Positions 53-2,230 of a stretch of 2,230 nucleotides of DNA are shown piece after piece. The stretch lies in the NCBI RefSeq assembly GCF_003334815.1, contig NZ_QOWO01000088.1, one strand, 5' to 3'. A model generated the notes under the pieces. The model worked only from the letters and a program-made list of their open reading frames with translations, searched no databases and was not told the origin of the DNA. Both the position numbers and the translations under genes were made by a program. Numbering within the stretch: position 1 is the first letter of the stretch; every line of letters starts with the position of its first letter. Origin of the DNA: Escherichia coli. Its GTDB lineage: Bacteria > Pseudomonadota > Gammaproteobacteria > Enterobacterales > Enterobacteriaceae.

Positions 53-108
53 CGTCCAACAAAATGGGTGCAGTACACGGCGGGGCTTTGTTCTTATCAG
101 AGTGAACT

Positions 109-312
109 ATGTTTGGTAACTTAGGACAGGCAAAAAAATATCTCGGCCAGGCGGCGAAGATGTTGATTGGCATTCCAGACTACGACAACTACGTCGAGCA
201 TATGAAGACCAACCATCCCGACAAGCCGTACATGAGCTATGAAGAATTCTTCCGCGAACGCCAGAACGCACGCTACGGCGGCGATGGTAAAGGCGGTATG
301 CGCTGTTGTTAA
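109..312 (+). CDS. yjiX: Small DUF466-family protein (YjiX/YbdD-like, 67 aa), the type usually encoded next to a CstA/BtsT-family transporter gene
   Basis: ATG at 109 to TAA at 310..312, 67 aa. The translation ([67 protein letters not shown]) matches the short YjiX/YbdD family as I recall it, and it sits immediately upstream of yjiA as in E. coli. The Shine-Dalgarno sequence is weak (GAGTGA). Confidence 0.85.
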
Positions 313-322
313 TGGAGAGAGC

Positions 323-1279
323 ATGAACCCGATTGCAGTTACCCTACTCACCGGTTTTTTAGGCGCGGGCAAAACCACCCTGCTGCGCCATATTCTTAAC
401 GAACAACACGGCTACAAGATTGCCGTGATTGAAAACGAATTCGGCGAAGTCTCCGTTGATGATCAACTGATTGGCGACCGCGCCACGCAGATCAAAACGC
501 TGACCAACGGCTGCATCTGCTGTTCGCGCTCCAACGAGCTGGAAGACGCACTACTCGACCTGCTGGATAATCTCGACAAGGGCAATATTCAGTTCGACCG
601 TCTGGTCATTGAATGCACCGGCATGGCCGATCCCGGCCCGATTATTCAGACCTTTTTCTCCCATGAGATTTTATGCCAGCGCTACCTGCTGGACGGCGTG
701 ATTGCGCTGGTGGATGCGGTACATGCCGATGAGCAGATGAACCAGTTCACCATCGCCCAGTCCCAGGTTGGCTACGCCGACCGTATTCTGCTGACGAAAA
801 CCGACGTCGCAGGCGAAGCAGAGAAACTGCGTGAACGCCTGGCGCGCATCAACGCCCGCGCACCGGTCTACACCGTTACCCACGGCGATATCGACCTGGG
901 CCTTCTGTTCAACACCAACGGTTTTATGCTGGAAGAAAACGTCGTCAGCACCAAACCGCGTTTCCACTTTATCACGGACAAACAAAACGATATTTCGTCG
1001 ATTGTGGTGGAACTGGATTACCCGGTAGATATCAGCGAAGTTTCCCGGGTGATGGAAAACCTGCTGCTGGAGTCGGCGGATAAACTACTGCGTTACAAAG
1101 GGATGCTATGGATTGACGGCGAACCTAACCGCCTGCTATTCCAGGGCGTCCAACGCCTCTACAGCGCCGACTGGGACCGCCCGTGGGGCGATGAAAAACC
1201 GCATAGCACGATGGTGTTTATCGGGATTCAGTTGCCGGAGGAAGAGATTCGGGCAGCGTTTGCGGGGTTGAGGAAGTAA
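323..1279 (+). CDS. yjiA: COG0523/CobW-family P-loop GTPase (G3E-type putative metal chaperone), 318 aa
   Basis: ATG at 323 preceded by GGAGA (314..318); stop TAA at 1277..1279. Walker A motif GFLGAGKTT at residues 11-19 (nt 353..379). The family-defining CxCC metal-binding motif GCICC is at residues 63-67 (nt 509..523). Length and N-terminus (MNPIAVTLLTGFLGAGKTTLLRHIL...) fit E. coli YjiA. The ORF-track start at 239 is an upstream in-frame ATG inside yjiX and is rejected in favour of 323. Confidence 0.95.
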   Translation: MNPIAVTLLTGFLGAGKTTLLRHILNEQHGYKIAVIENEFGEVSVDDQLIGDRATQIKTLTNGCICCSRSNELEDALLDLLDNLDKGNIQFDRLVIECTGMADPGPIIQTFFSHEILCQRYLLDGVIALVDAVHADEQMNQFTIAQSQVGYADRILLTKTDVAGEAEKLRERLARINARAPVYTVTHGDIDLGLLFNTNGFMLEENVVSTKPRFHFITDKQNDISSIVVELDYPVDISEVSRVMENLLLESADKLLRYKGMLWIDGEPNRLLFQGVQRLYSADWDRPWGDEKPHSTMVFIGIQLPEEEIRAAFAGLRK

Positions 1280-1290
1280 TTTTGGATGAT

Positions 1291-1321
1291 GGCCGCCATG
1301 TGGCGGCCTGAATTATTTTTT
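1291..1321 (+). terminator. Putative intrinsic terminator after yjiA: stem GGCCGCC/GGCGGCC with ATGT loop (1291..1308), then a T6 tract (1316..1321)
   Basis: Perfect 7-bp GC-rich inverted repeat seen directly, 12 nt after the yjiA stop. The T-tract is separated from the stem by 7 nt (TGAATTA), which is suboptimal. It lies in the 33-bp gap between the convergent yjiA and brnA genes. Confidence 0.45.
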
Positions 1322-1615
1322 GTTCTGATCGCGCAGCATCGCTTCACGTAAAATTGCGTTCAGGCGAGTTTGATAGCCTTTACCTGGTCGCTTCAACCAT
1401 TCCATCACATCAGCATCAATACGCACCGAAGCCTGAGTTTTCAATGGCCGATAAAACTTACCGCGTTCGGCGTTAGACCATTGCTCATCGCTGGAAGGTG
1501 GGATATCACTGTAATCAATATCTTCGTCGGATTTATTCGCCAGCGCCTTCAGTTCGGCCTCATGCTGCACATCGAGTGTAGAGGAGGTCCCTCGTTTATG
1601 TTTAACCATGCTCAT
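1313..1615 (-). CDS. brnA: BrnA-family antitoxin (DUF4415, ribbon-helix-helix-type DNA-binding C-terminus), 100 aa
   Basis: ATG at 1615..1613 preceded by a strong Shine-Dalgarno sequence (AAGAGAGGA, 6 nt upstream on the minus strand); stop TAA at 1315..1313. The translation (MSMVKHKRGTSSTLDVQHEAELKALANKSDEDIDYSDIPPSSDEQWSNAERGKFYRPLKTQASVRIDADVMEWLKRPGKGYQTRLNAILREAMLRDQNKK) has the acidic D/E-rich middle and the GKGYQTR-N-LRE C-terminal signature I associate with BrnA. The 29-aa N-terminal extension in the ORF track (start 1702) is out-of-frame read-through across the brnT 3' end and is rejected. Confidence 0.8.
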   Translation of the reverse strand: MSMVKHKRGTSSTLDVQHEAELKALANKSDEDIDYSDIPPSSDEQWSNAERGKFYRPLKTQASVRIDADVMEWLKRPGKGYQTRLNAILREAMLRDQNKK

Positions 1616-1878
1616 AGCGATTCCTCTCTTTACGATCTGCTTTTCGTGCACTGATGATTCGAATAATTTCATTTCCGCTTTCGAAACGGATGGTATGCGC
1701 AACCAGAATAACCACGATGCCGTAATGTCTGCCAGCGATACTCACCGTTTTCTATGCGTTCTTGCTGTGACAAATGTTGTGGATCATCAAACAATAACAC
1801 CGCATCTTCAAAGCGGATGCCATGTTTCACCCGATTACTTTTGGCCTTGTTTTCATCCCATTCAAACTCCATTGGCAT
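1602..1878 (-). pseudogene. brnT: BrnT-family toxin (DUF497, RelE-like fold ribonuclease toxin) disrupted by an apparent +1 frameshift near 1722
   Basis: The N-terminal half (MPMEFEWDENKAKSNRVKHGIRFEDAVLLFDDPQHLSQQERIENGEYRWQTL) reads in the frame of the 1669..1905 ORF. The conserved C-terminal half (GIVVILVAHTIRFESGNEIIRIISARKADRKERNRYEHG, stop TAA at 1604..1602) is in a different frame that has no start codon. Removing one base around 1722 (minus-strand ACATTA-C-GGCATC) would join them into one 91-aa ORF of typical BrnT size. The reconstructed 3' end overlaps the brnA start by 14 nt, the usual toxin-first brnTA layout. The start is ambiguous: ATG at 1878 (preferred, with GGGATGG 5 nt upstream), 1887 or 1872. 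Confidence 0.6.
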
Positions 1879-1893
1879 AATTGCCATCCCTAA

Positions 1894-1905
1894 TTGTATA
1901 TACAA
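1894..1905. promoter_or_regulatory. Perfect 12-bp palindrome TTGTATATACAA just upstream of the brnT start; candidate operator for the BrnA/BrnTA repressor
   Basis: Exact self-complementarity seen directly in the sequence. It lies 16 nt upstream of the preferred brnT start codon in the AT-rich leader. Ribbon-helix-helix antitoxins typically autoregulate through palindromic operators. Function is inferred, not shown. Confidence 0.3.
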
Positions 1906-1960
1906 AAATGTATCTACAATTATTCTGCAATTATAGCGTTGATGTTGGAAATAGCATCAC
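1906..1960 (-). promoter_or_regulatory. Candidate brnTA promoter region: consensus -10 TATAAT on the minus strand (1935..1930) with a poor -35; direct repeat CAATTAT at 1917..1923 and 1928..1934
   Basis: Hexamer and repeats read directly. The -35 match is weak (ATGCTA at 16-bp spacing). An alternative pair, TTGTAG/TACAAT, overlaps the palindrome at 15-bp spacing. Promoter assignment is tentative. Confidence 0.2.
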
Positions 1961-1992
1961 GTTTCGAATAATCAACCATGAAATTGACAATG

Positions 1993-2003
1993 AGTAAGTT
2001 GGA
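1993..2003. repeat. 11-nt inverted copy of the IS1 terminal-repeat core (AGTAAGTTGGA, reverse complement of TCCAACTTACT at 2071..2081)
   Basis: Exact 11-mer reverse-complement match seen in the sequence, 58 bp outside the IS1 terminus. It could be a relic of a second, inverted IS1 end or a chance match; 11 nt is short. Confidence 0.3.
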
Positions 2004-2061
2004 CTTGATTCATCCAATAGAATTTCTCGCCTGACATGGCACACTAAACACCTCGCTGTCG

Positions 2062-2084
2062 GGTAATGACTCCAACTTACTGAT
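2062..2084. repeat. IS1 terminal inverted repeat (GGTAATGACTCCAACTTACTGAT)
   Basis: Matches the recalled canonical IS1 right inverted repeat (GGTAATGACTCCAACTTATTGAT) with one substitution (T to C at 2080). This marks the IS/chromosome junction at 2061/2062. Confidence 0.85.
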
Positions 2085-2230
2085 AGTGTTTTATGTTCAG
2101 ATAATGCCCGATGACCTTGTCATGCAGCTCCACCGATTTTGAGAACGACAGTGACTTCCGTCCCAGCCTTGCCAGATGTTGTCTCAGATTCAGATTATGT
2201 CGCTCAATGCGCTGAGTGTAACGCTTGCTG
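2077..2230 (-). CDS. insB: IS1 transposase InsB, C-terminal 50 codons (partial; 5' end lies beyond the window)
   Basis: Minus-strand translation in from the window edge gives ...[50 protein letters not shown], with stop TAA at 2079..2077 inside the terminal repeat, as in IS1. It is absent from the ORF track because it has no in-window start codon. Confidence 0.85.

Follow-up and report, generated by a model that had tools for sequence, protein, structure and literature searches.

IS1 is a 768-bp insertion sequence. Its InsA product, a zinc-ribbon and helix-turn-helix (HTH) protein, binds to the terminal repeats and acts as a repressor of transcription. At an A6C motif, -1 ribosomal frameshifting joins InsA to the InsB frame, resulting in the DDE transposase InsAB', which works on both 23-bp ends and usually leaves target duplications of 8 to 9 bp. 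Escherichia coli K-12 carries the "consensus" elements IS1A and IS1E, which are near-identical to IS1R of plasmid R100, as well as IS1F, which is located downstream of the fec operons, beside yjhU. The latter has been described as the fourth type of IS1; it is 90.5% identical to IS1A/E, from which it differs by 73 mismatches (PMC12428005, PMC12903888). K-12 IS1F is immobile alone, and it is the copy most readily mobilized in trans by supplied InsAB', possibly as a result of its more similar ends (PMC12428005, PMC12903888).

We analyzed a 2,230-bp stretch of E. coli DNA (contig NZ_QOWO01000088.1), referred to here as the window, at the end of which an initial annotation had proposed a diverged IS1 isoform. 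Positions 2062 to 2230 very probably correspond to the right inverted repeat (IRR) and the 3' end of insB of a chromosomal IS1F-type IS1 copy in its intact, ancestral-looking form. This right-hand segment of 169 bp has its insA-to-insB orientation on the minus strand and runs off the end of the window. The IS1 terminal repeat GGTAATGAC begins exactly at position 2062, with GGTAATGACTCC. The 23-bp IRR (GGTAATGACTCCAACTTACTGAT) covers positions 2062 to 2084 and equals that of IS1A except for position 19 (window position 2080, T>C). The 3' end of insB/insAB' is found at positions 2077 to 2230 on the minus strand and comprises the stop codon (2077 to 2079), 50 complete sense codons (2080 to 2229), and a single base of the next codon. 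Its translation matches the end of the NCBIfam model NF033558, with the 50-amino-acid fragment aligning to model positions 175 to 199, and is located inside the Pfam domain DDE_Tnp_IS1 (InsAB' residues 102 to 232). The window stops at element position 600, 599 bp before the other end of the element; insA, the A6C motif, and the left inverted repeat (IRL) are thus outside it. The segment agrees at every base with the first 169 bp of a complete 768-bp IS1 at positions 5985 to 6752 of locus L001, and the same 169 bp are found with 100% identity in copies from thousands of E. coli records.

This segment was then compared base by base with K-12 IS1A (NC_000913.3, positions 19796 to 20563) and with K-12 IS1F. 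The alignment with IS1A is ungapped and contains 13 mismatches (92.3% identity; megablast gives the same value for IS1A-annotated copies), namely, at positions 2080, 2116, 2152, 2169, 2176, 2179, 2182, 2194, 2200, 2209, 2215, 2218, and 2221, a number within the 10 to 15 substitutions that had been estimated by eye. All 13 (9 transitions and 4 transversions) affect sense codons of the minus-strand insB and are synonymous, and the 50 complete codons of the InsB tail encode the C terminus of IS1A InsB residue for residue, as had been claimed. Based on the per-site synonymous fractions in this stretch (0.373 for transitions and 0.180 for transversions), the probability that all 13 changes are synonymous is approximately 1.5e-7. 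The accompanying statement that every change is at a wobble position holds for 12 of them; the exception is position 2169, a first codon position (CGG>AGG, Arg to Arg). The change at position 2080 is the synonymous third base of the last InsB codon (CAA>CAG) and, at the same time, position 19 of the IRR. Partly because of this change, the IRL and IRR of the window-type element differ at 3 of 23 positions, whereas the ends of IS1A differ at 5 of 23, which bears out the greater likeness of IS1F ends. With respect to K-12 IS1F, the 169-bp stretch contains 2 differences.

As the initial annotation itself allowed, the element could in principle have been a standard IS1 of the IS1A/IS1R type that had been compared with a wrong reference. 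After testing, nothing favored this reading, and it is refuted by direct alignment to K-12 IS1A, which revealed the 13 differences over 169 bp and 69 differences over 768 bp; furthermore, IS1A-annotated copies are only 91.7 to 94.7% identical to the window. We consider that there is practically no chance of it being correct.

Many complete E. coli chromosomes match window positions 78 to 2230 with 100% identity, and the rest of the element was read in one of them, L001 (NZ_CP096587.1; the window coordinate is the L001 coordinate minus 3923). Its 768-bp element, with the IRL at L001 positions 6730 to 6752, differs from IS1A at 69 of 768 positions (91.0% identity) and from K-12 IS1F at 4 of 768 positions (99.5% identity). 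The insA and insB frames are open, and with the A6C motif at element position 307, a -1 shift results in an InsAB' of 232 amino acids. This protein matches the Pfam families Zn_ribbon_InsA, HTH_Tnp_IS1, and DDE_Tnp_IS1 (PF03811, PF12759, and PF03400) with E-values of 3e-19 to 4e-74, and NF033558 with 243.8 bits (cutoff, 100). To be intact, an element of this type would have to contain (i) TGG at element positions 541 to 543, (ii) AAAAAAC at positions 307 to 313, (iii) open insA and insB frames, and (iv) the IRL GGTAATGCTGCCAACTTACTGAT. The initial annotation had suggested verifying insA, the A6C motif, and the left inverted repeat, and in all seven examined chromosomes matching window positions 78 to 2230 (1 mismatch at most), L001 and six others, the complete 768-bp IS1 was found with insA, A6C, insB in the -1 frame, and both inverted repeats intact. 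These seven genomes, which share the 11-bp brnT deletion described below, encode the intact transposase WP_223409538.1. Terminal repeats of approximately 23 bp beginning with GGTAATG or GGTGATG are present, the IRR in the window and the IRL at the loci of identical context. The anatomy of the window-type element is that of known IS1 in every respect. From the genomes of identical context, we infer that the source genome's own copy is also complete and intact.

Comparison with K-12 IS1F and IS1A, together with the NCBI protein name, identifies the element from its sequence as a member of the already-named IS1F type and not as a new isoform. The exact InsAB' protein is already public under the NCBI name "IS1-like element IS1F family transposase," and the exact InsB sequence is likewise public and is known from at least 1,000 contigs. 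Some other named isoform could match equally well or better, for example IS1X2, the name of which is carried by one cluster member. The description as a diverged IS1 isoform was right with respect to the distance of 69/768 from IS1A but not in any sense of novelty, given the distance of 4/768 from K-12 IS1F. The element and K-12 IS1F share the length of 768 bp, 764 of 768 bases, the A6C site, and identical terminal repeats (IRL GGTAATGCTGCC..., IRR GGTAATGACTCC...ACTTACTGAT). They are distinguished by four changes in the K-12 copy, which is annotated as a pseudogene: H34P in InsA, a stop in the InsB frame (TGG>TAG), an S>L replacement, and one silent change. None of the four is found in the window type, which encodes the full InsAB'. 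At all four sites it has the IS1A state, and the changes in K-12 IS1F are therefore derived. At the fec locus of strain B-JRPT-4119 (L011, positions 601 to 1368; ykiE/fecI side), the same IS1F copy as in K-12 has an open transposase frame, so that the K-12 stop arose after insertion there. IS1A/IS1E and the window type agree in length, gene layout, frameshift motif, and Pfam domains, whereas they differ by 69 nucleotides and 15 amino acids, as well as at IRL position 4 and IRR position 19.

The initial annotation had interpreted the pattern of substitutions as purifying selection on a diverged isoform, and the analysis of the whole element agrees with this. Nei-Gojobori estimates for the whole InsAB' versus IS1A are a dS of 0.36 and a dN of 0.03 (dN/dS, 0.083), and those for the window part are a dN/dS of 0, a pS of 0.355, and a dS of 0.48. 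Judged from these sequence comparisons, the divergence of the IS1F type from IS1A carries a strong signature of purifying selection. The proposal that all changes are synonymous in insB is correct for the window part but does not extend to the whole transposase, in which 15 amino acids differ; 6 of these belong to the InsA part and 9 to InsB' residues 130 to 162, and none is found in the last 70 InsAB' residues. The C-terminal 51 codons contain 13 synonymous and 0 nonsynonymous changes, compared to approximately 34.5 and 15.5 in the remainder (Fisher P, 0.013 to 0.018). The stronger protein constraint at the C terminus is explained by the location of this region in the DDE catalytic domain. 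The all-synonymous pattern very probably arose because IS1A-type and IS1F-type elements diverged to a dS of approximately 0.36 while both were maintained as working transposase genes; element lineages losing their transposase cease to spread. The selection signal is a record of the history of the isoform and not of the window's own copy.

The lack of amino acid changes in the window part might also be due to a constraint that is unrelated to protein function: insB overlaps the IRR, and a segment may have been patched in by recombination. The overlap with the 23-bp IRR involves only the last 8 sense-codon bases (2080 to 2084 plus the stop region). The change at position 2080, 1 of the 13, falls in the IRR and improves its match to the IRL, mosaic IS1A/IS1F elements are known (L007 and L010), and the C-terminal codons are, as mentioned, more conserved than the rest. 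A constraint at the DNA level, though, would also hold down synonymous changes, and the tighter protein constraint is accounted for by the catalytic domain. The high synonymous divergence of the window part rules out a DNA-level artifact of the IRR overlap as the source of the signal and shows that the segment was not recently copied from IS1A. A nonprotein explanation is exceedingly unlikely.

Upstream of the IS1 segment, the window contains the terminal 77 bp of an IS150 (positions 1 to 77), 100% identical to annotated IS150 ends in 2,838 genomes; yjiX (109 to 312, plus strand) and the GTPase gene yjiA (323 to 1279, plus strand); the intact antitoxin gene brnA (1313 to 1615, minus strand; WP_000063156.1 in identical DNA); a brnT toxin pseudogene (1602 to 1878, minus strand); and a spacer between brnT and IS1 (1879 to 2061). 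The brnT gene is labeled as frameshifted by PGAP and has an 11-bp deletion after position 1726 with respect to the intact brnT of locus L012. The IS150 end abuts the region upstream of yjiX, 31 bp ahead of the yjiX start codon. This junction (positions 77/78) was found in none of 5,426 complete E. coli genomes, and the exact 48-mer spanning it is absent from the two large contig collections metagenome_contigs and genome_contigs. Bounded by two IS ends, the window looks like a whole short-read contig that is broken at repeats.

The same left junction is present in a sister lineage, in L014 (element at positions 1994 to 2761) and L015 (1994 to 2760), where the IS1 copies are pseudogenes; the L014 copy is interrupted by an internal stop, and the L015 copy by a stop and a frameshift. 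These copies carry the G>A nonsense change at element position 542 that is also found in K-12 IS1F, are adjacent to an intact brnT, and do not differ from the window in the 169 bp that it covers; the window alone can therefore not separate the intact from the nonsense form. Position 542 corresponds to window coordinate 2288, 58 bp past the window end. Since L014 and L015 have the IS1 together with an intact brnT, the IS1 insertion is older than the brnT deletion. The occurrence of the position 542 change at two loci suggests that it was either passed between IS1 copies by gene conversion or produced by mutation more than once.

The copy in the source genome might be a decayed or truncated IS1F relic, carrying the position 542 nonsense change or a later rearrangement, in which case the synonymous pattern would reflect past selection. 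Apart from the pseudogenes at the same junction, the stop at position 542 is also carried by K-12 IS1F and by the copy in L009; moreover, the source genome has an additional IS150 insertion that is absent from all references and so is not identical to any sampled genome. A search with a 58-mer around this codon revealed at least one copy of the exact intact type in 4,255 records, whereas in 1,763 records the best copy had 1 or 2 mismatches. However, the window has the 11-bp brnT deletion, all seven sampled genomes of that haplotype have an intact element, and the pseudogene copies are linked to an intact brnT. A relic is thus improbable, and we favor an intact copy in the source genome. The initial suggestion of an element that is probably still functional and not a relic is in line with the intact element in the seven matching genomes, but the selection signal does not concern the window's own copy, and sister lineages carry the nonsense allele.

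In the "immigration control region" of E. coli, the window's IS1 copy has brnT on one side and mdtM on the other. The 9 bp next to its IRR, TCGCTGTCG (positions 2053 to 2061), form the left junction and do not recur at the opposite end, where the flank read in L001 is AAATTTTAA. The target-site duplication of 8 to 9 bp that the initial annotation had proposed to look for is hence absent from the window's copy, which is explained by a 5.8-kb deletion at the site. Roughly 1,800 genomes have brnAT beside yjiA. IS1-free relatives with this arrangement (H116 to H119) match the window through position 2061 and no further. From there they run into a restriction endonuclease gene, followed by a type I restriction-modification (R-M) system or its remnants, symE, yjiS, yjiR, and rpn, up to the other flank of IS1 upstream of mdtM; with respect to L012, 5,813 bp are missing. 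In E. coli B REL606, mrr-hsd adjoins yjiA, and an IS1A-type copy is found elsewhere in the region. In sequence terms, the window's IS1 marks an IS1-associated deletion in the immigration control region.

Adjacent deletions and inversions mediated by IS1 were reportedly described by Reif and Saedler in 1975 and are classical behavior of this element. The window's copy resembles such cases in that one IS1 junction is constant, the other side is missing or rearranged, and there is no target duplication. Among nine genomes, the left junction was constant, and there were three different right flanks, namely, the mdtM upstream region, a second sequence in L014, and part of yjiC in inverted orientation in L018 and L021; a constant left and a varied right flank are the pattern that would be expected of adjacent deletion or inversion mediated by IS1. 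In L018 and L021 (positions 3653 to 3953 in both; 100% identity in the window region), the IRL is adjoined by a yjiC gene (DUF2686) that is inverted and truncated, in the place of the mdtM upstream region, and these flanks indicate an IS1-associated inversion. Unlike in the classical cases, the mechanism here is read from the structure, and we infer that IS1 itself caused the deletion; homologous recombination between IS1 copies instead of transposition could have been the route, since it leaves the same structure.

The abundance of the IS1F type was determined with an IS1F-specific stretch of 132 bp that shares no 28-mer with IS1A-type copies. Of 5,426 complete E. coli genomes, 4,401 contain it, at a total of 23,242 places, 2,486 of which are on plasmids, with a median of 3 and a maximum of 46 places per genome. 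Copies with 0 to 2 differences from the window type are present at four unrelated chromosomal loci, namely, an O145 island, ykgR/yicL, dgcZ, and the fec locus. Perfect 9-bp duplications flank IS1F-type copies in L009 (CAATACCAT; ddpA/ddpB) and L010 (CCCTGGGTC; inside a major facilitator superfamily [MFS] transporter gene), and none was found at the seven other copies inspected for a target-site duplication, which are the near-identical copies L001, L002, L005, L006, and L007 as well as L008 and L011. The IS1F type is mobile now or was so recently. The copy in L009 (positions 601 to 1368) is a defective IS1F of the K-12 type, with the stop codon and the A6C motif mutated to A7, yet it has a perfect 9-bp duplication; an element that is unable to make transposase but has moved is consistent with mobilization in trans. 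Two copies, in L007 (1501 to 2268) and L010 (601 to 1368), are mosaics with an IS1F-type backbone and patches in the IS1A state (element positions 196 to 265; in L007, also IRL position 4), which indicates recombination between isoforms.

A broader role for the element may be proposed only tentatively, and we regard it as rather doubtful: the intact IS1F type would act as an autonomous "master" that sustains the widespread IS1F copies with the nonsense change in trans, and the window's copy would have repeatedly remodeled the immigration control region from one fixed end, with an R-M deletion in a large clade and inversion or replacement in sublineages. The activity of the IS1F-type transposase in its intact form is predicted from sequence, and the experimental data concern only the defective K-12 copy. 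IS1 and its approximately 10% divergent IS1F type have been familiar for decades, and the latter is present in about four fifths of the complete E. coli genomes, so that the finding has little significance past annotation. K-12 IS1F, the copy that is usually cited, is a defective derivative, and the window represents the intact form, which would be the right construct for testing the activity of the IS1F-type transposase. In addition, this copy marks the loss of R-M genes beside yjiA, which is relevant to differences among strains in their barriers to DNA uptake.
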